NCBI GenBank assembly: GCA_951406725.2 | Contig: OX597814.1 | Coordinates: 55,056,001 to 55,120,000, forward strand | DNA from: Octopus vulgaris | Taxonomy: Eukaryota | DNA length: 64,000 nt | Reading direction: 5' to 3' | In this document: one piece after another, positions 4,059-57,741 of the stretch | Position numbering within the stretch: position 1 is the first letter of the stretch | How the letters are laid out: each line of letters starts with the position of its first letter | Program-made: the position numbers and the translations under genes | Notes under the pieces: generated by a model | Databases searched by the model: none | Told to the model about the DNA's origin: nothing | The model's input: the letters and a program-made list of their open reading frames with translations, nothing else

Positions 4059-7000
4059 CTCTAGGCCTTTTAACAGTTCAGCTATCAACCGAAGTAGTCT
4101 ATCATTAGAGGCTCTTTCTGCTACATTTTTCTTTGTCACTGTAGGCTTACAATTATCTGAAAATTTTCAAGTCAGTACAATGATGAACAATAGCTGCATC
4201 TTCATCTGTATTTATCAATTAGCCAACGGTGTCTTCATTCATACTCAATGCAAGATCCTTTGCAACAGTATTAGTTAAATAATGAGCATAAAAAAGCAGA
4301 TCATGCTATATACTGAATTTCCTTCGAGGCCCTATATCCTGTAAAATCATCTCCATTGTTTAATGAAGTACAAACTCAAATAGCAATCCTAGCCGCAAAC
4401 TATGCTATTCATTTTTTGGTGTGGATACTTCTAAGCACTAACAACACAGTAAACTATATCTTTTACTTTAAATTCCTGAGAAACTTCCATACTGGTCTGC
4501 TAGAGTTAATTACGTTCAGTAGACACCTCATAAAATGTCTGCGATATTTAGACTTAAAAGAATGTAGTATGCCATTGTCGTGGAATGGGATTAATGATGT
4601 GCAATTAAGTGAGCAGTAAATATCAAGAACATTGTTTTTACTTGGTGTTCTGCTATAGATATGTAGAACTGTTGTCTAAAATAAGCATTATCCCACAGCA
4701 GTGGTCCAGGCCAGATGAGTCACTGAGAACTGTTGTTTGGGGAACAAAATAGTTTTCAAATCAACCAATAAAATTACAGTTGTTATCCAATGTTTTCTCT
4801 TGGCATGATAAATCACAGGCCAGTTTATCATACCTCTAAAAACTCTAGCGCATAAATGTTTTACCAGTAACCAGTAACTTGTACCTGTGGGTAGCTATGG
4901 TATTAGGCCAGGCCAGTACAGTGGCACGACCTTTTGGTGCTGTTTATCTTGTTCTATCCTCAAATATCAGTGTTTCTGTTGCGCACAATTCCAAAACAAT
5001 GCTGTCTCATTTGCATTGTAGACCTGCTCAGGACTTTTAATCTGAACTCACATGGCGATCATGTCAACAAATTTGGCAACTATTTCCTTGTCCGCTGAGC
5101 ATTATTCACCATAAACTGCAGGCACGAAATATTAAACCATATCGATCTTTGAAATGCTGCAGTCAACCATAACTTTAGTCATACTCATAATCTAAAGTAA
5201 AACTTTTATGAATGATTTGGCTTGTTCCTTCACTAGATCTCCAGACAACTCAACATCTTCACTTAAATATACACAAAATCATTTCATCAGAACTTGATCT
5301 TATTCTGAACGTTTTCATTCTTTTTCTTTTACACTACTGTTTGTAAAGAAAAGGAAAAAGAAAAACAACTGAGAGGTTGGATACAATGGTGCTTGGGTGA
5401 GAGGTTGGTACTTAACAATTTAAAGTATAATAATCCCATGAGAATAGTGTGGCTCTGGTCACCGTGTTAGTTTGAATCTCAGCAGTGGACTAGCAGATTT
5501 CATTGTAGTTCGGGTGGTTTCCGATCCCGTAATTTTGGAATGTTCTATTTTTCTGGTATGTGAAGCAATCCCATAAATCATTGTGTTTATTAAGAAGGTA
5601 TCTGTTGTTGGCTAATATAATCTCCAATCTCTCTATAGTACATAACCCAAAGAACATCTACCCGCTTCGGTACGGATCCCACCATCAACAATTCAATCTA
5701 TAGTTAATCATAATATCAATCAAATCATTGAAATATTCTGCTTGTGAATTTGAGAACTTAAGTCTGGGGCTGGACAAAGAGGGCCTATGCATAGGTATCT
5801 TTCATCTTTTACGCTTTACTTGTTTTAGTCATTTGATAGCTGCCATACTTTAGCTATCAAATGGAATAATTGCCCGCGCGCGACGCGCATGTGTGTGTGT
5901 ACATTGGCTCTTTTCTATGGTAGAAGACACTTGCCCAAAGCTTTGTGCTGAGGAATGAACCCAAATCCACGTAGCTGCAAAGTGAAAACATCTTAACCAC
6001 AGCCAGATTGTCACACATTTTCAAACACATCTTTAGGAAATTGCCTCTCAGAATTTTTTTTCATTTAATAGCTGGTCTTATCACATCAGTAACATTTTGC
6101 TTTGAAAACTTTTATATATAAAGCTCATATTAAAGATCATGAGGCTAACTGGAAGGTCTAACCCAATGGCTGAATTCTTGGTTTTGAACATTCTAAGATA
6201 TAGCCGTTTTGTATCATTAAACGTAAATGCTGTCTATATTGAAATTAAAACTGCCATATCAAGTACATGAAGCTTCAATAATTTGAAATATGACTGGCAT
6301 GCGTTACAGAACCCTTTTTAGAGTTCCTTAGACTTTTTCGGCTTGTGTATGGAGAAATATAAAGTAAACAGTATAACTGCCCCTTTTCCATTAAGAATTC
6401 GAAAAATATTCTTCTGCGAAAATTTCTTTTAACAATTCGCCCGTAAGCAGTTTGCTTTTATTACTTTAAAATGTTATTCCACAATAGAGAATAGTAACCC
6501 AGCTCAGCTAGACTGGTTATAAACAGATGGCAAGCTTCAGCGCCATAAGTAAGATTGCTTGATTCTCAACAGCTGATAAACAATGACTCTGATGGGAGAT
6601 AAATAATAGTAAACTAAACTTACTGTTAAAAGTCTTCAAATAGCTGACGACCTAAATATAAATATTATAATGTAGAAGGCGAGTAGTGAGACAAAGTATG
6701 TAGCAGCGAGCTGAGATATATTTCATCTTGAAATAAGCATGTGTAATTCGTAAGTGCCTTCTGTCAGTTGGTGTGTTTTGCTGAGTCGCCAACAACAATT
6801 AGCGATTAGAACTGATGGCATTAACAGATTCTAATGAGAGAGAAAAAATAGTGACTTCGTTTTATAGGTATGTATTATCAGTATGCCTTTCTGTGTCTGT
6901 GTAGGTATATGTAAAGTATAAATAATGTATAAATGCACAAATGGATTTATAAAGGATTAATGCATTTATATGTTGCGTCGTGATGAGAATATGTTTGAAC

Positions 7001-9955: not shown

Positions 9956-12900
9956 CTGACAGATCCCGTCTTTTTCCCTTTCTTTTCGTTTCCTTCTCCG
10001 TATTTTATTCTCATTATTTCGAACTAATACAGACACAGTAAGCCTTGAAGAAAGGAAGAGGAGGAAAGGAAAAAAAAAAAAAAAAAAAAAATGTCCGGAG
10101 ATAAAACTATCAACAAAAAAAATACAGACGAATATAGATCTGCTAGTCTTAAGAAGCGGCGCTATGAGCAATGCTTACACGTAGTGAACCCTAAACTGAC
10201 AGATCCATCTCCTAATATAAGAATGGATGCTCGTCATGCTTCAAGGTCAACAAATCAAACAATAAACCGCATTGGTCATTGCGCGGATTACAAAAGACCA
10301 CGTACCCGAAAATTGAACCAAATCCTGATTGAAAAATCAGTTACTGGATCAAATCTTCCCAACACACAGGAGCTGGACGAACCCCACAACCGGAATATTC
10401 CAACAGATGGCCATCCATGCTCATCACCAAATAATCAAAAGAAAAAGAAGGAAAAATGGTCTAGGGAAGATAATAAAGAAGTTCTTGAGGCCTTCTACCA
10501 TGCCATATATTTCCCCACAGATAAGTCTAGCACTGTACAAGCATACTTAAACTGGAGACAGAAACACCCTGAAGTAAGACCCTACATAGACAGTAACAAG
10601 CTTGCCAATGTTAGAAGAAACATTATAAAAAAGAAATTACTGACTGAAGTAGAGATTGATCAGGTTAGACAAGCAATATCGGATAAAATGAACGAAGCTG
10701 CAGCTAGAGAAGATAATACAGAGGAAATGATTATAGACCAGCCCAGGGCGGATAAAAACGAAGAGAGGATTGAAAGAGTTAGTATAAGTGATAGGCAAAG
10801 TGAAATACGCCCTGAACCAATCATAAACACTAAGACAGATGAGCATCAAATAGATAAAGAAAGTCACACAAATATTGACCCAACAGAACTACATGAGCTA
10901 AAAAATCAAATCATGATTGAATGGCTGAAAATTAAAGAAACCAGTATGGATGAGCGTGATACACTTCCTAAAATCCGCAACTCTAACCAAAACATGAAAA
11001 TAATTGGTAAAATCCGGCTTGCACTTAAGGATATAATTTCAGTTAATGATGTTGATATCACAAACCTCAACCACCTATACTATGCATCCGCGAAAATCTC
11101 AACGATCCTATGTGGTGTAAAGATTAGAAAACGGCAACAGTCCCACAAAAAGCCTTCTTGGCAAGAGCGTCTGCAACAACAAATTAAAATATTTAGATCT
11201 GACATTGAATATTTGAAAAACCTTAAGGCTCACAAGATTACCAAACCTACAAAAACCCAAAAATTACTGAAAAAATACAATATGAAAACTATACTTGATA
11301 TTGATGCCACCATAGAAACCATCAAACAAAAGGTATCTGCCAAAGCTGCCCGCATAGCGAGGTATGAAAAGCGTGTTAGATTTTTCAAGGACAACAACAT
11401 GTTCAAAAATAACACCAAGAATTTTTACAGGAAGATAGGAAAAACAGCGTTTACTGCAGGGTCTGTACCATCAAAAGAAGAAGTGCAGAGATTTTGGAAT
11501 AAAATCTGGGCAGAAGAAAAAACACACAACGAAAAGGCCCCCTGGATTGACAGAATATCTACAGAACTGGACCCCTTAGAAGAGCAAAAGTGGGAGGGTG
11601 TCAAGGTAGAAGATATAAGATCTGCTCTCAGGAGGTCAAGCAAATGGAAGTCTCCAGGAAAGGATAAAATTCCTAACTTCTGGCTGAATGCCTTCCCAGA
11701 GAGCCATGAACTGCTAACAGAACTGTACAATGATGTTTTGCAACACCCTAGTAGGATGCCTCCTTGGCTAGTTAATGGGTTAACATTCCTGCTTCCAAAA
11801 AGTGAAGAAACAAATGAACCAAAAAACTATAGACCCATAACTTGCTTAACAACTATGTACAAAACACTAACATCTGTCCTGACGGAATATACCTATAGTT
11901 TTTTAACAGACAGCAGCATATTCCCTAATGAACAGAAAGGATGTAAACGTGGATCCTACGGCTGTAAAGACCAACTACTCATCAATAAGATGATCTTAGA
12001 AGATTGTCACAAACGACACAAAAACTTATCAATAGCCTGGATAGACTATAAAAAGGCTTTTGATAGCCTACCACATAGCTGGATTAGGAAATGCCTTGAA
12101 ATGTATAAGATAGCACCAACTCTGCGAAACTTCTTGACTGTAAGTATGAGATCATGGAGAACTACACTAACTCTGAACAGTGACAGTGAATCCCTAAATG
12201 CTGGTGATGTAAAAATTTCGTGTGGCATTTTCCAGGGTGACTCACTGTCACCACTCCTCTTTTGTTTATCCTTAATACCTCTCTCAAAGCTGCTCAATGA
12301 CGCGCAGTACGGGTATAAAATGTTTGATAAAAATATAAATCATCTCGTTTACATGGATGATTTAAAGCTTTTTGCAAAAAATGATCAACAACTCAAGGGC
12401 TTACTAGCGATAGTCAAACAATTCAGTGACGACATCAGAATGCAATTCGGCCTCGAGAAATGTGCAAAGGCTACCTTTATCAAAGGAAAAATGACAGAAA
12501 CATCTAACGTTAACCTTGACCAACAGAATGTCATAAAAGAACTAGACCCAGCGGAGAGCTACAAGTACCTAGGGATAATTGAAGGGAACGGAATAAGGCA
12601 TTCAGAGATGAAGGAAAGGATCAGGAGAGAATGCTATCGAAGAGTGAGAGCAATACTCAAGACAGAGCTGAATGCAAGAAACAGGATCGAAGCAATCAAT
12701 GCATTAGCTATACCAGTCGTGACTTACAGTTTCAATATTGTTAACTGGTCAATTACTGAAATATGTCAGCTCGACAGAAAAATAAGGAAACTGTTGACAA
12801 TGCATAGAATGCACCACCCTAAGGCAGATACAGAACGACTCTATCTGCCAAGAAAAGAGGGAGGCCGTGGTCTTTTGCAACTGGCAATAACAATGAAGAT

Positions 12901-14123
12901 TGCTACAATTGGCCTAGACACCTACCTGAAAAACTCTGAGGACTGGATGCTAAAACTTGTCTCAAAACATGAAAACAAGAAAGCATCATACTCAGTCACA
13001 AAACAGGCAAAGGAATATCTAAGTGAATTCCGAATACAACCAATTTCGGAGATAGATATACAAGAAACAAGCACAGAAAAAGCTAGGCGCATGAAAACCC
13101 GTGCCAAAACTGCGGCCTTAGATATTCTGAATAATAAATGGCAAGAAAAACCTCTCTATGGCAAATACCCAAAGAGAGCGAATAATGCAGATATCGACAA
13201 AGCCCTGACCCATCAATGGCTAATGGCCTCTGGCTTAAAATCAGAAACAGAGGGGTTTATCATAGCAGCTCAAGATCAATGCCTACCAACAAGAAACTAC
13301 CAGGCCAACATATTAAAGATCAGAAGCAGTCCAACGTGTCGTGTATGCAAGCAACAAAATGAAACCATTGACCATGTGGTCTCCAAGTGCAGTCTTCTAG
13401 CGCCTACAGAGTATCTCAACAGGCACGATAGAGCTGCACAATATATTCACTGGGTAATCTGTAAAAACCTGGATTTGCCCCATGAAAAAAGCTGGTGGGA
13501 ACACAAACCACCCCCAGTGCTTGAAAATGACCACATCTCACTCCTCTGGAACTTCACCATTCAAACTGACAGGAAGATAGATGCAAATAGGCCAGACATC
13601 ATATTGAAAAACTTCAAACAAAGAACATGCCTCCTCATTGATATGACTGTCCCAATCGATATAAACGTATCTGTCAAGACCTACCAAAAACTGAGCAAAT
13701 ATAAAGATCTTGAAATAGAAATCAGCAAAATGTGGAAGCTGAAGACTAAAACAATACCTGTTGTCATAGGTGCCCTGGGAATGATAGCAAAAGGGGCTGA
13801 TAGCTACCTAACTCAGATACCAGGAAACCCAAAAATGGCAGAAGTTCAAAAGATAGTGCTCATGGGAACTGCTCATATCCTACGCAAAATACTCTCTATG
13901 TAATCTCAAGGTTTAAAACAAACATAATTTTCGGTTTAAAAAAAAAAAAAAAAAAAAAACTTTTTTTTTCTTTTTAGACATTCATTAGTACAACATCCCC
14001 ACCCCCAAATATATGGCACACTAGGCATAACAACAACATGAACTTCCAACCCTGTTGTCTCTTGAGGTCTCTGGGTGAGACTTGGAGCCAACTTGTACAA
14101 ATATAAAGCAAAAGTCAAACATA

Positions 14124-30202: not shown

Positions 30203-31132
30203 ATGATGAGAAAAATAATATTAGTCAATGATTGATATTATTTTACGTTTTCTGGTAACTATGGAAAACAAAATTGAACGTGCTTTAGTATGATTCCGAT
30301 ATCCTCAGCCAAGTGTAAGACCTTGTCGATGCGTAGGTTATTTGCCGGAGTAGTACTAAGGGAATTACTATAAAATTATACAGTAATTCACATAGAAAAA
30401 GAAAAGCAGGAATGGCTGTGTGGTAAGTAGCTTGCTAACCAGACATGCGCAGTTAGTCGGTTGCTTCTTGTTGAGCTAGAGCGGACGTGAGTAACAAGCT
30501 CTGTCCAACTAAAGAAAAAAGACCAAAAACGGAAAGTTGTCGAGGTAAGTGATTTTGTTTATTGTGAGTTGGGCATAATTTATTGCGTGCCAATTATTAT
30601 TTCAGTAGGTTGTGTCCAACTCTGAGACAATTTCGCCTGCGCTAGGCGGCTGCCGTTTTTGTGTTCATTAAAAAAAAAAAAAAGAAAAAACAGTGGAGGG
30701 GCGTATACTCAGGATTCAATACAGTTACTGTTAAAATTACCGTTGGCAGTAACCAGTGCTGTGTTTGAGTTTGCTGAATTTATTCCCTTGTCAGAGTACT
30801 TCGCAAGAAAAGTATAAAAATAAGCCACTATTGGATTACCTTTCGGACCCATTTTTGTGGAGGTTGTGTTGCAGTTGCGGCGTTCCAGGTTCAACCCAGG
30901 CCGGGAGTACCGCAGAATATTTTTGCTGTGTTTTTTCTGTTTATTAACTTTCTTTTGAACTTCATTTACCCCCCCCCCTTTGTTTTTTCTTTATTGCGAC
31001 TTTCCGTTAATTTCTTCCCTTCTGTTGTGCTTTCTCCTTTTTGTTTTTTCAAAAATCTATCAAATTTATTTAGACTTTTGAACTTTTTTCTTCCTGCTTT
31101 TGAGTCTAATTTGAATATATTTTTTAAAAAAC

Positions 31133-32377
31133 ATGGCAATGAAAAATAACAAAGTTTTGGAGTGGGAAATCATACCACCCAAAAAGTGGTTGAAGGACCG
31201 TGAAGATAGGACGGTGGTGTTGAGAACCTACTCCAAGGCACTTGACACCATCGCCCTATTCGAAAAGACGGCAATTGAGGAGGAGTTGGAGGAGTATTTG
31301 CCAACAATTAAATTCATTTCCAGGGGTGTCAAATATGGAACGGTGTGGTTGCTGTTTGACACCCCTGAAGAGGCTTGCAAATTTGCTAGCGAACCCTTGG
31401 AGGGTAAGGAAATCTTATTCCTGCCCACTTACAAAAAAAAGAAATTAATGAAAGCTTGGATCTGCGGACTGCCACCCGACATAGAACCCGAGTGGATAGA
31501 GGAGACTATCCGCCGGGGTCTGGGTGACAGCGAAACTAAGCTCCTCAATGTAAAAGTTCTTCCTGCGGCTGCTTGGGTTGGCTCGAAAGCAGTTTTGACC
31601 CTGTGGACCCAATCAGCCAATCTGGTTTTTCCAGATTTTTTGAAAATGGCCGGGTGCAGGTACCCGGTGATGCTTGAGGGTCGCCCCCCTAAGTGTCATC
31701 GGTGCTTGGAGTCCGGCCACATAAAGAAGAACTGTCCTCGGGAACAAAATAGGATCCCGGAACAGTTAAGTAAAACCCCTCTAGAAGAGGGAACGATAAC
31801 GGCCGAGAAAGCAGAGGACTCCTCAAGCAGAGGCCGAAAGAGGAAGGTGAGCAACAATGGGTGCCCACCAAAGGATAATAGGGATGAGGAGAGGAGGGCG
31901 AATCTTCCAGCCACGGAGGAGACGCACCCTCCCTCAGTTGAAAAGGGAAAAAAAAAGAAAAAGAGGAAGAAAAACGGGACGTTGCCGGCTGTCAGTGTGG
32001 CACCGGAATGTCGCGGAACTACGTCGGTTGGGGTTGTGCCACCGACAAGAGAAGGAATACCGTTGGCGGAAACTGTGCCGCCAACGAAAGAACTGAATGT
32101 ATTGGTCCTCTTCTATAGAGGAGGAGAAATTGAAAAAGTGATGGAAGAGCACTACAAAGGAGCACCTTTAGCCTTCACACAGGACCCCGAATGGCCTCCG
32201 CAGGTAGCTGTGGAGGCCGTGGCGTTCGACGTGACGCTAGGGCTAAAGGAGCTCAATGAAGACTATAACTTGGTCCCGGGCGACGCGAACTCGGAACTTG
32301 ACTACGTTCTGAGGGAGGCGTGGTTGATGGTGGAGGGCGCGGGCACAAGCTATTTCGAGGACGATATGTATTATTAG
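31133..32377 (+). CDS. L1/Tx1-type ORF1 (Gag-like) nucleic-acid-binding protein with one CCHC zinc knuckle, 414 aa
   Basis: CHRCLESGHIKKNC (CX2CX4HX4C), basic tracts and RRM-like N-terminal half. Motifs YGT, LPTY, PPDI..W and EGRPP are shared with the ORF upstream of Tx1-like ORF2 at 47.5-48.1 kb and with the copies at 46 and 57 kb. Confidence 0.85.
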   Translation: MAMKNNKVLEWEIIPPKKWLKDREDRTVVLRTYSKALDTIALFEKTAIEEELEEYLPTIKFISRGVKYGTVWLLFDTPEEACKFASEPLEGKEILFLPTYKKKKLMKAWICGLPPDIEPEWIEETIRRGLGDSETKLLNVKVLPAAAWVGSKAVLTLWTQSANLVFPDFLKMAGCRYPVMLEGRPPKCHRCLESGHIKKNCPREQNRIPEQLSKTPLEEGTITAEKAEDSSSRGRKRKVSNNGCPPKDNRDEERRANLPATEETHPPSVEKGKKKKKRKKNGTLPAVSVAPECRGTTSVGVVPPTREGIPLAETVPPTKELNVLVLFYRGGEIEKVMEEHYKGAPLAFTQDPEWPPQVAVEAVAFDVTLGLKELNEDYNLVPGDANSELDYVLREAWLMVEGAGTSYFEDDMYY

Positions 32378-32503
32378 TAATGGACTTAAGTCCAAAAATT
32401 GAAAAATTGTAAGAGGATTAATACCTCGTTTTGTATTAATAATGGACTGCTAAGCCCAAAATTGGAAAAATTGTAAGAGGTTTAATACCTCGTTTTGTGT
32501 TAA
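32378..32503 (+). repeat. Two-copy ~62-bp tandem duplication in the element's 3' UTR
   Basis: TAATGGACT...AAAATTG.AAAATTGTAAGAGG.TTAATACCTCGTTTTGT.TTAA occurs twice. Confidence 0.9.
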
Positions 32504-33316
32504 TCTTTTTTAAAAAGAACAATGTTTTAGAGAAGCAAAAGTCGGCGGGCGCTTTCTGTCTTCTCCCATCCTTATAACCTTTCTTTCATTATCATTCACC
32601 TCATTAATGTCCTCGTCCAGCCCGCAAAGCTAACTTAATCTGTGTACTGCCTTTATGGCAAATGTTTTGAAATAAAGTAGCTTGCTTATCAACCACATGG
32701 TTCCGGGTTCAGTCCCACTATGTGGCACCTTGAGCAAGTGTCTTCTACTAAACTCTCGGGTCGACCAAAGCCTTGTGAGTGGATTTAGTAGACGGAAGCT
32801 GAAAGAATCCCGTAGCATATATATATATATATAAATATATGTATGTATGTATGTATGTATGTATCTATGTATAAATGTATATATGTATATGTTTGTGCAT
32901 CTGTGTTTGTCACCACATCATCGATTGACAACCGATGTTGGTGTACTTACGTCTCCATAACTTAGCGGTTCGGCAAAAGAGACGGATAGAATAAGTACTA
33001 GGCTTACAAAGAATAAATCCTAGGGTCGATTTGTTCGACTAAAGGCGATGTTTCTGCATGGCCGCAGTCAAATGACTGGAAAAGTAAAAGAAGAGTATAT
33101 ATATATTTATACAAACATTTTTGTGAATAGCGTTGTTGGTTGAAGGATTCCATCGACCAATTATTCATTGCTCCAATTTATTTCTGATGCCAAGAGTGAC
33201 AAAGGATTGTTTGGGAGACTGAATGGAATAAATCTCACAATCCATTCTTGTTCAGCAAACATCTGCATGTGTGTGTGTGTGCGCGCATATATATATATGT
33301 GTGTGTGTGTGTGCGC

Positions 33317-45867: not shown

Positions 45868-47160
45868 TACACACCTTTGTCCATCCGTGAAATCCTCCCT
45901 CGGTAATTTCAACCATATTAAACACATCCACTTGGAAATCTTCGAAAAAGTAGAGAAGGTGCTGAGGCCAATCTGGCAAGAAATAACAGAGGGCCGATAT
46001 TCGGAGTTGAGGTCAGATTCATAAATAAAAACATGGCGAAAAACACTCGACAACACCACTAAGGGACGAAGAGCTAGTACTTCTACCCACGTACCTGGGA
46101 CAGAGAGCGTCTCGGGTAAGGGTAGAAGGAATTCCACCAGAGATAGATGTGGCCTGGATAGCAGCTGCTGTTTTGGTTGATACCGAGGACAAGATAGCGG
46201 TGCTCCAGGCCACAAAAACGAAAAGTGTGAATAGGAAAGGCCAAATCTTGAATATTATTATTCAAGGTTCAAAAGAAGCAATAGAAAAAATGATTGAAAC
46301 GTTGACCGTGAACGAAACTATAATGAATGTAAGGATGGAGGGCAGAATCCCTCACTGTTTTAAATGTGGCCAGAAGGGCCACATAAGAGTGGAATGCCTC
46401 CACCAGATAAAAAAGCTGAGGAAAGGTAAAACGAAGATCCCCAGGAGAAACCACAAGAGAAACCCAGGATGGACAAGAGAAAGAAAAAATGGTTCCTGTA
46501 GAAACAGAAAAAGAAGAGGAAGAATGAGAAAATACCGGAAAAAGAAAGAGAAGGAAGAGGAAAAGGATAAGTCCAATACATATAGAACTTCACCCTACAA
46601 CTACCCAAGGCACACCCATACCCTCTTTGTTCCACCCTCGCCCTGCAGACTCTAAACCTCCTCTCTCCCCTCTAGCACAAAAACAAAAGAAAAGAACATT
46701 TTCACACAATGACTCACAAACCTCTCCTCCCATGGGCAGTTTTGCGTGTGTAATATATGATGAACTGTTTGAAAGGGCAATTGAATGGGAGAACACAGTT
46801 CATGTTGATGTAGAGAATGAAGATGGAGTGGAAGGTACGGTTCTGTTAATAACGGAACGGCAAAGGATGAAAATAAAGAGACACAAAGGGGAATATGAAC
46901 TGTGGAAGGTGGACTTTAACAAAGAAAAACTACCACAGTTTATAGAATATGAAGAACTTAAAAAAAGGTATGGGGTAGACATAATGGAGAACAGAGAAAA
47001 GGAAGCAAGCGATGTTACTTGATGGAGCAGGTAACATCATTTTCATTTCACGTTTTTCCATCTTTCATTATATCATGCGTTTTATTTTTTTTTTCAATTG
47101 TTGTATGTCCCCAATGTGATGTATGTCCCTCTTTGATGGCCCGTCATGGGTAATAAAAAA
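45868..47160 (+). mobile_element. Third ORF1-only (HAL1-like) element, 5'-truncated and frameshifted
   Basis: VLLPTYLG.R..GIPPEIDVAWIAA and MEGRIPHCFKCGQKGHIRVEC; the ORF ends at 47022 and a short 3' UTR ends AATAAAAAA. Confidence 0.8.
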
Positions 47161-49370
47161 TCGTAATCAGTTCGTGCCAGTCACGAGGCGAAATAACTCT
47201 GAAAGTTTAGCTGTGCTGGAGTGGTTTTTGTGCTTGGTTGGATTGTGTTGTTGTGTCGAGGAGTTGTTAAAGTTTGTTTTTGTTGAACTATTTTTTGAAT
47301 TGATTGTAAAACAATTATTGTTTTCACCTGCGCGGTGAAGCATTCATTATGGCTTGTGTTTAGAATCTAAGAGAAGAAGAGAAGAGGTGTGTGAGCGAGG
47401 AAGAGGTAGAGAACTTGGTCGAAAAACAACTTAGTGATTTCGACGATGAATACCCGAGATTGAGAGAGAGAGAATAATGCCAGCTACAACGAGAAAAGAA
47501 CTTAAACACCTAGTACACTAACGAAAGAAAAAGCAGAAAAAAAGAAAGAAAAGAAGAAGAAGCTTGACTCCGCCGCTAAATCTCAATAATGTGGAACAAC
47601 ATAAACAAATAATGTCAAGGGAGGGGCACGAAATTAAAGGGGCCCCTCCAAAAAGTATTATCAAGGATTTAGAAAAGAAGACGCTGATATACAAGACATA
47701 CAAGGTGACGGAAAAAAGAATCGACTATGTGACAGAAGCAGAAATCGAAAAATGCCTAAAACCAATATAGGATAAGGTGAAATACATAGCGAGAGGAAAG
47801 ATACGGTACAGTGGAGGTCAGAATGGAGTCAGAAGAAGAACCTCGGCTTCATTCTGTCGACCCTTTAAAAGCGGGCGAAGTAGTTCTTCTACCCATATAC
47901 AGGGGTGGAAGAACGTCCAGAATTACAATAATCAACATTCCCCCTGAGGTGGATCCTGGGTGGCTCATCGCGGCTGTAACTATGGGTCTGGAAGAAAAAG
48001 AGGAGGAGTGGTCTCTTGTTCAGAACAAGAGGAAAATAAAGCCACCCTCCCCCGAAAAAGAAAAAGATAAAGCGCATGTTTATTTAAAAAAGCTAAAAAT
48101 CTGGAGAAGAAAAAAATGAGGACAGTTGCTACATGGCGGTTCGCGTCTCGAAGAGAGACCTGGTGAACCGCCTGACAACTCTCCATGTAGAAAAAATAGA
48201 GACTGAGAACAAGGTAATTTGATAAACAAACCCGAAGAGATGTGTCGGACCTTTCAGGAGCATTTGGCCCAGCCTTTTGAGGGTAGTGATGGACAGGATA
48301 GTAGGATAGACCTTAACGACTTCCTCGCCGAGCTGCCACGCCTCTCGGGGCAGGACGCAGAGAGCTGTGAAGGGTCGATCACGTCTGAGGAAGTGATTGA
48401 GGCCACAACAGACTGCGGCGGTGGTAACGCGCCGGGACTCGATGGTCTACCGTACGAGCTATATAAAAGTATGCCAGAATTGTGCGCTGGAGAGTAGTGA
48501 CGCTGGTCAGGAAGAACCTGGACAAGGGGGATAATATAGATAATTTTAGGCCCATCACTCAGCTGAACGCAGAGATGAAGATTTTGGTCAAGGTGTTAGC
48601 AAAAAGATTGACGCGTGTCGCGAATGGCCTGGTTGGGGAGGCACAAACGTGTGCAGTCCCTGGCAGAACTATCCAGGATAATCTACATCTTATACGCTAC
48701 ACTGTAGAAGGGTATGGTAATACATCTGGCAAAGGTGGGGCACTAGTCCATTTAGACCAAGTTAAAGCATTTGATAGGGTAGACCATCGGTACCTGTTTT
48801 ACGTACTCGCGCAGTTCGGACTGGGTCTTGGTTTCCTCAAGTGGATCATACAATTGTACAACAATATCAGCTCGATCGTTTGGGTGAACGGATTTTCTCG
48901 AAGCCGTTCTGCATCAAAGGGTCGGTTCGCCAAGGGTGTCCACTCTCTCCACTTTTATACGTGGTGGCCCTCGAGCCATTACTGCGAAAGCTGAGCGGCA
49001 TCCTGACGAATCCTGGAGGTGGAGGATCGGTTACAGCGTACGCAGATGACAAAACTATCATCATGACTAAGATGGAACACCTACAGAAAGTAGGCGAAAC
49101 CATTAAGGTTTACGAGACGGTGGCAGGAGCAAAAATAAACCGAGAAAAGTCGGTCGGCTTGCAACTCTGCACCTGGGGAAGCAAGTCGAGCCTTTGAATA
49201 GCGTCATGGGACGCTGGACGGGGAGCCCGGTTAAGTTGCTAGGAATCTGGTTTGGCCCAGATCTACAAATAGAAAAGAACTGGTTCAAGGTATCGGGCAA
49301 GGTGACTCACATGGTCAACACCTGGTCTTGTCGGTGGCTATCCTTGTGCGCCCGTATGGTCAATAATAAA
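47161..49370 (+). mobile_element. L1/Tx1-clade element with decayed ORF1 and internally deleted ORF2
   Basis: TCAGTT initiator-like start; ORF1 remnants at 47477-48119; RT remnants at 48200-49345; AATAATAAAA end. Confidence 0.85.
48200..49345 (+). pseudogene. L1/Tx1 ORF2 reverse transcriptase (endonuclease and C-terminus missing)
   Basis: APGLDGLPYELYK, NFRPITQLNAEMKIL, LDQVKAFDRVDH, SVRQGCPLSPLLY, AYADD, KINREKS and LLGIWF over several frames. Confidence 0.92.
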
Positions 49371-50974: not shown

Positions 50975-51178
50975 GGCGCAGGCCTGGCTGTGTGGAGAGA
51001 AGCTTGCTTCCTTTCTCACCACATAGTTTCGCATTCGCTCCCACTGTGTAGCACCTTGGTTCCGGGTTCAGTCCCACTGCGTGGCATCTTGGGCAAGGTC
51101 TTTTACAATAGCCCCGTGACAACTAAAGCTTTGTGAGTGGATTTGGTAGGTGGAAACTGACAAAAGCCGGTCGTATAT
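50975..51178 (+). mobile_element. SINE family A with a duplicated head segment
   Basis: Two consecutive CCCACTG.GT.GCA.CTTGG blocks. Confidence 0.75.
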
Positions 51179-52226: not shown

Positions 52227-53995
52227 TTATGTTATGGCTTCCCCCTCGTTATCGAGTATGGCCATTGCACGAAGCTTAACTGTTACTGGTGCTGTGATCG
52301 AATGTGACTTTTTAGCCCAGCTAAAGATCTATAATGTCTTGTACAAAATTGGGAACTAAAACCTTTACTGGTAATAGCCAGCTGTAGTTGTAACTGGGCT
52401 TCATGTACCTTTGCATGTCGTTTAAGTCCTCCTGCCGAATTACACTCTCTTCCACATGCCCGACAGATATGATTAGTATGGTGTGTTACACCACCATTAG
52501 TGGCCAGGTTGTCACTCATCTGCCTCGTTTTATGACTACGAAGATGACTCATGAGTCCAGCTTTACTGAGGCAGGGTCTTGCACAGACATTGCATGTCAG
52601 AATCAAAGGAAGACCCTTCCCTTCTGGAAGTGTAACAGCGATGCCCTTCCTGACATCCCTCCTTACTTTCTCATGTGCAACTCGAGATTTCTCAAAAGTG
52701 GCTGTCCCCTCATGCACAATCCTTCTCTACCTGCTACGATCAATAACTATGCCTTCCCATGTGTCAGGAGAGATGCAAGCATCTCTTAAGGAAGCCTTCA
52801 GCAAGTCCTTATACCTCTTGTTTGGTTTATGTGGAGGTCGTTCTCCTTTAGCTAACTCTCCATAAAAGAGTTGTTTTGGCATCCTTGAATCCTTCATGCT
52901 GACCAGATGACCACTCCATCTGAGCCTTTACTTTAACACAAGAGCTTCTATACTTTCACACAGAGAGCCTTAGGGTATTTCAAGATCACTGATGCGGTCC
53001 TTCCACTTAATGCTATAGATCCGTCTGAGGCACATCTGATGGAAACGTTCCAGTTGTTTAAGGTGGTATCGATATGTGACCCACGTCTCGCAGGCATAGA
53101 GAAGAGAAGGGAGCACACATGCCTTGTACACCTTTATCTTTGTCTTTCTGCATATGTCTCGCCGACTCCAGAGGCGCTTTTCTAGCCTTCCGAAAGCAAC
53201 ACTTGCTTTCCTAATTCTATATGGAATTTCATCATCCACATTACCATATCTATTAATAGTGCTTCCCAGGTAGACAAACTGATCGACTACATCAAGTCGT
53301 TTACCATTCACATAGATATTTGGTACACTATACTGCTTACCAGGGGCAGGTTGATGCATGACAACAGTTTTCTTGAGATTGACTGTCAATCCTAAGGCAG
53401 TGCAAGCATCAGAGAATGCATTCAAAACGTGTTGCATATCAATCTCTGTGTGTGCTACTAGCTCTCAATCATCTGCATACAAAAGGTCTCTTATAATAGC
53501 GGTAAATATCTTTGTTTTTGCAGTAAGGCGCCTGATATCAAATATGCTGCCAGGGGTTCGATAATGGACGTAAACACCGTATCTGCAGTTTCTGAATGCA
53601 ATACAGAACACCATCGCGAAATATATGGAAAATAGGATCGGTGCCAGAATATCCCCGTTTCATTCCATTTTGTATTGAAATGGGCTCCGACATCTTCCCT
53701 CTAACATTCACCCTACCATTCATGTCTTCATGAAAAAACCTAACCAAAGCAAGGAACTTTTCAGGACACCCAAGTTTCTGGAGGTCTTTCCACAATGCTT
53801 TACTATTGACGGTATCAAAGGCTTTTGTCAGATCGACAATCATCTGATATAAATCCAAACCCTGTTCCACACACTTTTCCTGGAGCTGTCTAGCTGAAAA
53901 GATCATATCAGCAGTGCCACGTCCCACACGAAAGCCAGATTGACTTTCTGGAAGAACACAATCTGCGATGTATTTCAGCAGACGATCTAGGAACT
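52227..53995 (-). mobile_element. 5'-truncated RTE/BovB-like LINE with C-terminal C2H2 zinc fingers
   Basis: ESQSGFR.GRGTADMIFSARQLQEK, DLTKAFD, LYADD, FVYLGS and LLYACETW; flanked by ACGTACATAC... on both sides. Confidence 0.92.
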
Positions 53996-54076
53996 TACGT
54001 ACATACATACATACATACATACATACATACATACATACATACATACATACATACATACATACATACATACATACAT

Positions 54077-55035
54077 GAGGCTGATAACATCATAAGACTT
54101 GGAAGGCAGATCTTTGACCAACATTCTTTGATAACCTAGAATATATGCCCAACGACGTCGCACGACTCTACCACAACGTGTCATCAGATGAAAGGATGAG
54201 CAGAAGACTATGCATGGATATGTTGGTAGAAAGCTCCGAGATGACAGTAACATCGATCATCAAAGCAGTTGATCATGGACCAATAACCGGATTACTTCCT
54301 ACCACTTTGAAGGGTATGCGTTTGCAATCCAGGAACAGGAAATATCAACCAAATTACCTGATGCACATAATGGGACAGAGATGCAGGATAAGCAGTAAAA
54401 TGTGACAACCGATACAGACTTTGTGGAGTTAACACCGAAGATATCACCTACGTCATGAGCAGTTGTCCGAAAATGTCATCACGGTATTATCTATCGATGA
54501 GACATAATGTTGTAGCTAGGACACTCTATAATGAAATCCATTGGAAGGATAACCACAAGGACAAAGAAATAAGAACCCACAGTATGATAGAAGCCATAGC
54601 CACTCATAATGAAAAGGAGTGCTGGTGGAATGTTCCACTGAATACCTCATTTAAATGTAAGCACAACAGACCTGATATAATGGTTTGGGATAGAGCGGAT
54701 GTTAACATAAGGCTGAAGATCGATGAAAAAGAGAATACCTACGTTGAACTATTGAGAAATCTGCAGTTACTCGATCCAGATTATAAGTTCAGGTTTATAC
54801 CTGTAATTATTGGGGCCCTGAGATATGTAACACACTGCCGAAATACCAATCTTGAGAAATTAGGCTTCTCAAAAACAGAAAAGAGAAACCTAATTCGAAA
54901 ACTACAGATCTAATTCATCACTAGAAAAATCTGTAAAACTTTCCAGAACTTTATCATTTAAATACATATGAGCATGTCTAGATATGCAACTATATGCATG
55001 AGATGCAGACATAAAGCAAAACATACTAATCTCCT

Positions 55036-56089: not shown

Positions 56090-56134
<45 letters not shown>

Positions 56135-57741
56135 CGACAGGCTTCTTTCAGTTTCCATCTACCAAATCCACTCACAAGGCTTTGGTTGGCCCGAGGCTAT
56201 AGCAGAAGACACTTGCCCAAGGTGCCACGCAGTGGGACTGAATCCGGAACCATGTGGTTGAGAAGCAAGCTGCATTATTTCAATATTTTTTCCACAAAGG
56301 CATTACATAGAGGGGACACTACAACACATGTGGGGACATATAACAATTAAAAATATATAAAAGTAAAATATTTTATGAATGACACATGAAAATGAACATG
56401 AAAAACAAATTATAATTATTATAACATGCGTGATAGTTGAAAATGAAAATATGAAGGGTGTGCTACTCACCCCACACTGAGCAACACCACTCGCCGCCTC
56501 TGAGTCCTAATTTCCTTTTAGTCTCTGTTCCAGTTCTACCATCGCTCCATGACCGCTCTCTCTTATAAACTTTTTCACCGGGGGAGGGGTCTTCTCAATT
56601 CTGAGGTGTCTGCAGTTTTTCTTTTTTTACCGTGGGAAATGGGGTGGGTGGGTTGGTGTCTGTATGCTGAGGGTGGGTCTGAGTGGTCTTGGGTGGGATA
56701 GAGTTGGACTGGGGTACCACATCACACTCAGTGTTCTTTCTTTTCTTTCTCTTCTTCCTTCTACTTTCTGTTACTCTCCATTCTTCTTCCTTTTCCTCCT
56801 TTCCTCCGTCTGTCTTTTCTTCCTCTCTTTTCACTTCCGACTCCACAACTGTTTCCCCTGCTACTGTTCTCTGTAGAGGGCAGTATGCTCTAATGTAGCC
56901 CTTTTGGCCACATTTAAAACAATGTGGTACTCTGCCCTCTATCCACACTCTCAGCACAATTTCTCTCAACGTCACCGTCTCTGCCAAACTCTCCAGTTGT
57001 TCCTCCTCCGTCTGTATATTTAATTCTAGTGTCTTCCTTTCCCACCCTCATTCTTCTGTTTCTGTGGCTTGAAGGACAGCCAATTTCTCCTCACGTCCAA
57101 CAAGGACAGACGCCGACACCCAAGCAACTTCTATATTAGGTGGGATTGCTTCTACCCTTACTTTGGAAGTCTTTTTTCCAAGGTATGTGGGTAGCAGCAC
57201 TACTTCCTCTGTTTTCACCGCCACACTCGTCAGCCTCCACGCCTCCTCTACTATCCTAGGTTGGACGACCATTGTCCCATATCTCCTTCTTTTAGTTATA
57301 TATGTTATTTCCTTTGACCGCTCTCTTAGCGCCTTTTCCTTTTCAACTTCCACCTACTCGGCTTCTTTCCTTTTAACGAGAACACCTTATAGGTGATCGT
57401 TTTTCTCTCCATCCATTCCATAATTTCTTTGGAGGGCGACAACCTCACGTCGTCTCCTACCTGTACCATCTTCTCATACACTTTAAGACCAGCCAAGTCC
57501 AACTCCCTTCACTTCATCTCCGTGGCCTCAGCAAAACTTGTCCTCTCCAACACTCCGTCCATCTTCATGACCGTCTTTACCAGCTCCTCCTCTGCTAAAG
57601 ACAACTTAGACCCGCTAAGGTCTGAATACATTTTCTAAGCAGCACGAAAAAACAGTCCGACTCACAACAAATTCACAAAGCAACTACTGGACAACGCATG
57701 CGCGGAAGCAAGCTACTTACCACACAGCCACTCCTGCGCCT
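55910..57741 (-). mobile_element. SINE family A split by a 1.4-kb insertion in its tRNA-like head
   Basis: Head 57704-57741; remainder 55910-56273. Confidence 0.92.
56274..57703 (-). mobile_element. Second SINE-inserted ORF1-only (HAL1-like) element, frameshifted
   Basis: RRRYGT, VVLLPTYLGKK..IPPNIEVAW and EGRVPHCFKCGQKGYIRAYC; TSD GTAGCTTGCTTCC / GCAGCTTGCTTCT (element sense). Confidence 0.82.

Follow-up and report, generated by a model that had tools for sequence, protein, structure and literature searches.

ORF1-only retroelements at a fixed position in a SINE head of Octopus vulgaris, and a probable L1/Tx1-type partner

How does a retroelement that encodes neither reverse transcriptase (RT) nor endonuclease come to lie within the head of a short interspersed element (SINE)? 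The question is raised by a locus in a 64,000-nucleotide stretch of Octopus vulgaris DNA (contig OX597814.1, positions 55,056,001 to 55,120,000; hereafter the window, whose numbering is used throughout), where an insert of 2.24 kb with only one open reading frame (ORF), an ORF1, splits a SINE into a head and a body. This insert is one of at least 213 ORF1-only copies, nearly all at one position of the SINE head, and these were probably inserted there in trans, by target-primed reverse transcription (TPRT), through the ORF2 protein of a 5.4-kb long interspersed element (LINE) of L1/Tx1 type. The basis is observed: the copies share one site, their targets are independent, their 3' hairpin and tail are shared with that LINE, their ORF1 is under selection, and the target duplication reaches 16 bp. 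Judging from sequence, this is a real, young, genome-wide system, consisting of an apparently sequence-specific L1/Tx1-type LINE and several passengers resembling HAL1 at one base of the SINE head.

A SINE interrupted by an ORF1-only insert lacking RT and endonuclease had been described in the first-pass annotation, and all of its parts were recovered (Table 1). The sequence AAGTAGCTTG is found twice, at 30425-30434 and 32675-32684, flanking the insert, whose 3' tail ends in GAAATA at 32669-32674. Apart from the 414-aa ORF, the insert has no ORF of 120 aa or more, and Pfam gave this ORF no RT or endonuclease match and a weak zf-CCHC match (E 0.0076) under the Pfam cut-off. The second, divergent ORF1-only element that had been proposed for the same SINE site is likewise present in the window, and its decayed ORF1 is homologous to the 414-aa one (27% identity over 152 aa, E 1.5e-13). 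The description of the SINE head as tRNA-like stands only insofar as A- and B-box-like motifs can be recognized by eye, since neither ARAGORN, applied to the window, nor Rfam, applied to an intact SINE copy, recognized a tRNA. After the SINE body and a microsatellite, another repeat part extends to about 33095 (by eye). The empty allele of the locus was sought in four public runs, in which contigs built from the unique left flank end at 30433; the ORF1-only family is covered in DNA runs of two organisms, depth being no measure of copy number.

Table 1. Coordinates of the interrupted SINE, its insert and the second ORF1-only element
Feature	Position	Strand	Remark
SINE head, left target part; A-box-like TGGCTGTGTGG at 30413-30423	30406..30424	+	A box by eye against the consensus
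Target-derived core of 5' duplication copy, AAGTAGCTT	30425..30433	+	Private base on both sides at locus L010
Element's own 5' end, GCTAACCA; like the SINE sequence after the core; family-specific, independent of target variant	30434..30441	+	27/30 informative loci element-type
5' leader, ~690 nt; first ~355 nt exchanged between subfamilies A1/A2; putative internal promoter	30442..31132	+	
ORF1, 414 aa: predicted RRM aa ~14-103, predicted RRM ~104-184, CCHC knuckle 188-201, then low-confidence basic linker and C-terminal part	31133..32377	+	
3' untranslated region (UTR); ~62-nt tandem duplication, 32372-32440 / 32434-32504, 89%	32378..32648	+	
GCC-N5-GGC hairpin; in all ORF1-only families examined and in the autonomous element; likely ORF2 recognition signal	32649..32659	+	
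Fixed tail ending GAAATA, without poly(A) tract; first two target bases complete AATAAA	32660..32674	+	
3' target copy, AAGTAGCTTGCTTATC; 16-nt span fully duplicated at truncated copies elsewhere	32675..32690	+	
Body of interrupted SINE; B-box-like GGTTCAGTCCC at 32706-32716	32675..32813	+	
Family-D element, ORF1-only and the older of the two; ORF1 decayed; 5' end GCTTCC; at the SINE site of the first	56276..57709	-	
SINE head preceding the family-D element	57710..57740	-	
SINE body following the family-D element	56133..56275	-	

When the 2.8-Gb genome was searched with the 414-aa ORF, at least 103 matches were obtained. All of the top 30 loci end in the SINE body; they begin at the SINE head in 25 cases and, in the other 5, at another element's tail. 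Their upstream flanks resemble one another only where repeats or tandem neighbours are involved (9 pairs over 150 nt). The 15 further loci with an apparently partial ORF, and 20 more, also end at the SINE site, 2 of the 15 through tandem neighbours. Partial-looking ORF1 matches (1-283, 85-414 and others), which might have been truncated or ORF2-bearing copies, proved to be mostly frameshifted full-length copies. So that the flank would not be selected on, a 30-nt tail of purely element sequence was also used as query, giving 213 exact matches (0 for the reversed control), of which 208, many more than chance would give, are directly followed by AAAGTAG; the first 30 by position all enter the SINE body, and the two exceptions inspected, of five, are both the SINE site with one base changed. 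The expectation of a shared SINE position with unrelated outer flanks was therefore borne out across the genome, and random flanks without enrichment at that position, the outcome named as its refutation, were not what we found.

The SINE itself is abundant, the 33-nt pattern spanning the intact site having 72,574 exact matches, a lower bound on its copies. Since a generic junction 15-mer occurs 1,451 times (109 for the control), the insertions of all families can be put at about 1,300, or ~2% of the intact-site count, so that the SINE population has barely been dented. At least four ORF1-only families are involved: A, to which the window insert belongs and whose copies diverge by about 1%; B and C, at 47-52% identity; and the old family D, whose 3' ends lead into the SINE body in 17 of 20 cases by eye (13 by regular expression), into another element in 2 and off target in 1. 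These families and the autonomous element also form mixed tandem arrays at one site, of up to five units (locus L033). The match lists further contain an array of three autonomous tails ~5.4 kb apart (G000:C9:2664556-2675460) and one of four junctions ~2 kb apart (C1:29272990-29279240), and a mini-element made of 46 nt of 5' end and 46 nt of 3' end occupies a SINE site at L123 (1443-1534).

The autonomous element was first met at locus L045, as an element with APE and RT ending at the same SINE site. A genome search with the RT half gave 76 matches, and all 30 inspected end at that site, while the autonomous tail has 105 exact matches, 101 of them continuing with AAAGTAG; ORF2-bearing copies with the same tail and site, which had been anticipated, do exist. 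Both tail counts (208/213 and 101/105) lie above the 20% of flanks in one sequence type that serves as a criterion of target preference for Tx1-type elements (PMC4494074). Among 20 copies taken whole, 18 start at a SINE head, one lies in a tandem array and one is broken; in 14 the ORF2 is open over 1,133 codons or more (the copies were chosen mostly for long frames), and 3 of these 14 also have an intact ORF1 of 466-467 aa. Its copies diverge by ~1%, making the family as young as family A, and a second autonomous subfamily is present (L094, L099). Locus L045 itself (G000:C4:127351300-127359300, - strand) is a chimera in which a family-A element, through its 3' UTR, is joined to the end of an autonomous ORF1 and a broken ORF2, and may have arisen by template switch or by deletion inside an array.

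With two ORFs, target-site duplications (TSDs), 5' truncations and no long terminal repeats, the partner fits the L1/Tx1 group. Its ORF2 carries the Pfam domains Exo_endo_phos (APE), RVT_1 and zf-RVT, and its best match in the PDB is human L1 ORF2p (E 4e-67, residues 6-870), R2 following at E 1e-19. The score was 310 bits with a coral protein that bears the similarity-based name 'Transposon TX1 uncharacterized 149 kDa protein' and 230 with human L1, though in different databases, and no clade-named match was seen among the 120 matches listed for the RT region. The partner is an L1/Tx1-type element, 'Tx1-like' being a similarity label. A homologous ORF2 occurs in Argonauta hians (64% identity), and a large unnamed ORF2 group (P0004-P0083) in public assemblies at ~37-52% identity. 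At the DNA level only the last ~37 nt shared by the window-type element and the partner are notable (78%), and the GCC-N5-GGC hairpin is invariant in 6/6 aligned tails, L094 having a C-G variant of the closing pair. The relationship of the two elements would be one of common ancestry, and not of recent internal deletion.

Before a mechanism is considered, it must be asked whether the SINE was the target of these insertions or moved together with them, a single ancestral SINE-plus-insert composite having been copied as a unit. Such hitchhiking would suit the fact that most copies are full length with constant ends, the existence of four 5'-broken copies without a SINE head, and the weakly positive uncorrected Spearman correlations between element and body distances. 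However, in the truncation test, as applied to SINEU-3 (PMC4494074), five copies with large, independent 5' truncations (L181, L186, L197, L204 and L245, being autonomous elements broken at 5105, 4699, about 4706 and 3810, and one family-D copy) lie directly behind a SINE head, as do two more copies short of about 15 nt. Furthermore, in 172 pairs of elements less than 0.5% apart, from 69 ORF1-only loci, the SINE bodies are 6.5% apart on average, ~20 times more distant than the elements, and belong to different SINE subfamilies; L010, with its broken SINE body, was left out of this figure and kept in the Mantel set, where it inflates the mean. Mantel tests of element against body distance were not significant (P 0.34, 0.12 and 0.17), and at least four ORF1-only families and the autonomous one occupy the site in mixed arrays. 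Truncated copies behind the head and near-identical elements in such distant bodies make the SINE a pre-existing target, and we reject the composite, which is extremely improbable; its descent from one duplication had been named beforehand as the outcome that would undo the idea of targeting, and it did not occur.

Nor was the junction itself exactly as first described. The 17-bp TSD with two mismatches turned out to be composite, with ~9-10 bp derived from the target and the remainder of the 5' copy being the element's own 5' end. Both junctions are present at 85 loci. Where the target is other than CTAAC, as at 30 of these, the 5' side is element-type in 27, target-type in 1 and a short truncation in 2; an extra base is found at the 5' junction in 12/85. 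A full 16-bp duplication is seen only at the truncated copies L204/L179, with a TTTAC variant on both sides, and L245/L225, with a private base on both sides. We infer a stagger of up to 16 nt; on annealing, the cDNA end, which copies the target-like 5' end, would overwrite the distal ~6 nt of this stagger. No poly(A) tract was seen at any inspected junction.

The ends of the elements also vary with the SINE. Copies ending in TAAC lie in TAA-type SINEs in 37/51 cases and those ending in TTAC in 6/18 (P 0.005, post hoc), and 30 of the first 100 empty sites listed are TAA-type (hand count). The old family D, with its GCTTCC end, has AGA-type targets in 14/18, and T is found at that target base in 166/167 junctions of the young families. 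The 5' end and the preferred target would seem to track the succession of SINE subfamilies, age and subfamily abundance confounding part of the trend.

A combination of RRM(s) and a CCHC knuckle in ORF1 is typical of the Tx1 clade, and the 414-aa ORF1 has it, in the form of predicted RRMs followed by one CCHC knuckle motif. Its structure model has a mean pLDDT of 50.5 overall and is confident only over residues ~21-200 (60-87 in 10-residue blocks); it resembles tandem-RRM proteins (Foldseek E about 1e-5), and each half resembles single RRMs (VIA Z 7-9). Between actual copies (13 pairs, Nei-Gojobori), the ratio of nonsynonymous to synonymous divergence (dN/dS) is 0.09-0.27 for residues 1-205 and 0.11-0.57 for the remainder, dS exceeding 1 between families and being close to saturation there. 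With dN/dS this low, ORF1 is under purifying selection and is maintained in elements without ORF2; a cis action on its own RNA would be the simplest reason. Both the N- and C-terminal halves of ORF1 and the 5' leaders have been shuffled between families, and Rfam found no ribozyme and no other relevant match on the leaders. Only two homologues of ORF1 were found, named from Octopus sinensis (65%). In an Octopus sinensis protein model (P0106), which is probably an annotation across nested elements, an integrase domain is joined with a piece of ORF1 (63% over 17% of the query).

Taking these results together, insertion might proceed as follows. The APE endonuclease of the partner would recognize AAG(T/A)AGCTT and nick the bottom strand just ahead of this motif, while ORF2 would bind the GCC-N5-GGC hairpin of an element RNA coated in cis by its own ORF1. 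At its 3' end this RNA would carry 10-30 nt of target sequence gained by read-through, an end inside the target being suggested by the AATAAA that straddles the junction, and its pairing with the nicked primer would explain the invariant junction and the missing poly(A). The top strand would then be cut up to 16 nt downstream, and the cDNA end could anneal to the overhang and overwrite mismatches, favouring full-length insertions and matching SINE subfamilies. Tandem arrays would form because each insertion regenerates the site. R2Ol offers a precedent: its efficiency rose with target homology downstream, and homology upstream was included to promote full-length insertion (PMC6530143). A T-rich insert of 2.2 kb between the box-like motifs may also inactivate the RNA polymerase III (Pol III) promoter of the interrupted SINE, and a role of the SINE as a 'safe harbour' is plausible. 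More tentatively, and with rather less confidence than we have in insertion in trans, a LINE guild long specialized on this SINE could have kept step with it, as the head changed from AGAAG..CTTCC to AGTAG..CTTAC/CTAAC and the 5' ends and target choice followed. Integration would then be of APE type, self-updating and partly RNA-guided, both RNA ends carrying target sequence of the donor site that pairs with the cut DNA, base-exact, mostly full-length and exploited by several selected ORF1-only lineages.

Several observations weigh against this picture. The 5'-broken copies L093, L112, L126 and L206 have no SINE head in the 2.4-7.4 kb upstream, later deletion being the simplest, if unproven, reading; L220 and L238 are off target; and TSD length in truncated copies varies (about 1, 1, 6, 16 and 16 bp). 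In the youngest copies the association between 5' end and target has a P of 0.055 (23/9 vs 6/9), and it could reflect the donor subfamily or age. Because occupied SINEs (168) are less diverged than empty ones (33) along their whole length, recognition of a sequence is inseparable from a preference for young or transcribed SINEs. Finally, the ORF1 of the partner is only ~29% identical to the 414-aa ORF1 over ~196 aa, so another autonomous family, with a closer ORF1, could drive the ORF1-only elements, the 5.4-kb element being a mere relative with the same target. The second autonomous subfamily would suit such a driver, as would the ~1,300 junctions when ~310 are assigned to the two tails. On the other hand, no inspected family-A locus runs from its own ORF1 into an ORF2 (L045 being a chimera), and in age the 5.4-kb family equals family A (~1% pairwise), so we hold this driver to be distinctly improbable.

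Two other explanations concern the specificity itself. It could reside mainly in RNA-DNA pairing, through the 3' read-through and the target-like 5' end, with an endonuclease that is only loosely specific, and the invariant junction without poly(A), the AATAAA across it, a target spectrum that follows the 5' end and age of each family, and the gain in R2Ol efficiency with flanking target homology (PMC6530143) all agree with this. Yet the targets of family D are AGA-type in 14 cases and AGT-type in 4, in the same register, truncated copies without the 5' mimic are still at the site, and target choice of Tx1-type elements is credited mainly to the endonuclease (PMC4494074), so that pairing as the main determinant is unlikely, although it deserves attention. 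Alternatively, ORF1 might bind TFIIIC or TFIIIB on active SINEs, as the TRE5-A ORF1 does upstream of tRNA genes, which would also explain why ORF1 is retained. The A-like and B-like boxes do flank the site, ORF1 has stayed conserved in copies that are non-autonomous, the occupied SINEs are young, and TRE5-A.2 provides an ORF1-only precedent (PMC3159450). Such tethering nevertheless sits badly with base-exact insertion, TRE5-A inserting away from its target (PMC3706591), with tandem insertions at junctions whose SINE head or body is kilobases off, and with ORF1s of 29-50% identity that use one site; nor is there a B-box-specific depletion of mismatches beyond the general trend, in a comparison with 33 empty copies only that is confounded by age. 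We regard it as very unlikely, and prefer sequence-specific insertion in trans by the 5.4-kb partner.

Other repeats were noted in the window. The stretch 45900-49330 (+) contains, in this order, an ORF1-only relative that is decayed and has a hairpin-like tail, and a likewise decayed element with ORF1 and RT that belongs to the same group; neither showed a SINE junction, they were left out of the counts, and they perhaps represent a family with another target. A SINE at 50975-51175 (+) has the head/B-box part doubled, by insertion of a SINE in a SINE or by internal duplication. An open ORF of 1270 aa at 10091-13903 (+), between (AAT)n-type repeats, has RVT_1, a weak zf-RVT and a C-terminus like a restriction-like endonuclease, and is presumably an R4/Dong-type LINE. 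The stretch 1938-2880 contains an ORF (2079-2660) that we take to resemble a Helitron Rep fragment, and decayed RT-like fragments occur also at 52970-54068 (-) and 54455-54913 (+); by eye they are RTE-like and R4-like.

Each ingredient of the system has a precedent. What is new is a SINE as target, a guild of ORF1-only elements that is long-lived, and ends that resemble the target and follow SINE subfamilies. In the literature searched (few subscription papers, no supplements, and neither Repbase nor Dfam) we met with no LINE or ORF1-only element described as having for its target a SINE head, which within these limits joins the known targets of sequence-specific LINEs. In a repeat annotation of Octopus vulgaris, 13 L1-Tx1 families are given as recently active, with 421 insertions (PMC13282606), and neither 'target' nor 'nested' occurs in the main text of that paper; the parts seen of PMC8967140, PMC4758252 and PMC3649969 contain nothing on targets. 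If the partner moves the insert, one genome parasite is the dedicated landing pad of another. Because the SINE target has dated subfamilies, the co-evolution of element and target can be read from the genome, which the invariant rRNA and snRNA targets disallow. Several selected ORF1-only lineages make HAL1-like retention of ORF1 testable with young, intact copies, and the genome holds a direct clue to second-strand synthesis in TPRT, namely a 16-nt stagger part of which the target-like 5' end would overwrite. A precise APE-RT acting in trans, a cis signal of ~37 nt and more than 70,000 redundant sites also suggest a possible knock-in route in the octopus group.

R2 elements have one ORF and a restriction-like endonuclease and, like R1, they differ from the octopus elements in targeting rDNA. 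In R2/R1, target homology in the flanks of the RNA improves priming and full-length insertion (PMC6530143), much as we infer here. Tx1-clade elements often have targets, other transposons included (PMC4494074), and base-exact insertion into multicopy small-RNA genes or transposons is also known from Keno, Dewa, Mutsu and Tx1L and from Dada (PMC4494074; PMC3706591), some families of the latter DNA transposon cutting within the tRNA A box (PMC3706591). Their targets, however, are host genes, spacers or DNA transposons (PMC4494074; PMC3706591), and 'SINE' does not occur in the main text of the Dada paper (PMC3706591). HAL1, or half-L1, is similarly non-autonomous, encodes only ORF1p and has several lineages (PMC5753468), but it is a mammalian L1 derivative for which no target specificity is described in the available passages of that paper, whereas the octopus element has predicted RRM-RRM and CCHC parts, no poly(A), and an ORF1 only ~29% identical to that of its partner; it works like HAL1 but is not a member. 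In Dictyostelium, TRE5-A.1, TRE5-A.2 and TRE5-B also combine an ORF1-only derivative mobilized in trans, a required structured 3' module and Pol III units (PMC3159450). TRE5-A is position-specific, inserting ~50 bp upstream of tRNA genes via contact with TFIIIB (PMC3159450), whereas the octopus element shows no variable distance upstream of a Pol III gene and inserts base-exactly inside a putative Pol III unit that is itself a retroposon. Like the octopus system, Tx1-Mar and SINEU-3 of crocodilians, which insert in Mariner-N4_AMi, pair a Tx1-type LINE with a non-autonomous partner at one target inside another transposon, have tandem insertions that sandwich a TSD, and owe the evidence of their independence to truncated copies (PMC4494074). 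There, a DNA transposon serves as target and a non-coding SINE as passenger, with a preference of at most 90% over two regions (PMC4494074), whereas the octopus passengers encode ORF1 and have a SINE head as their target, ~97% of tail matches falling at one base position.

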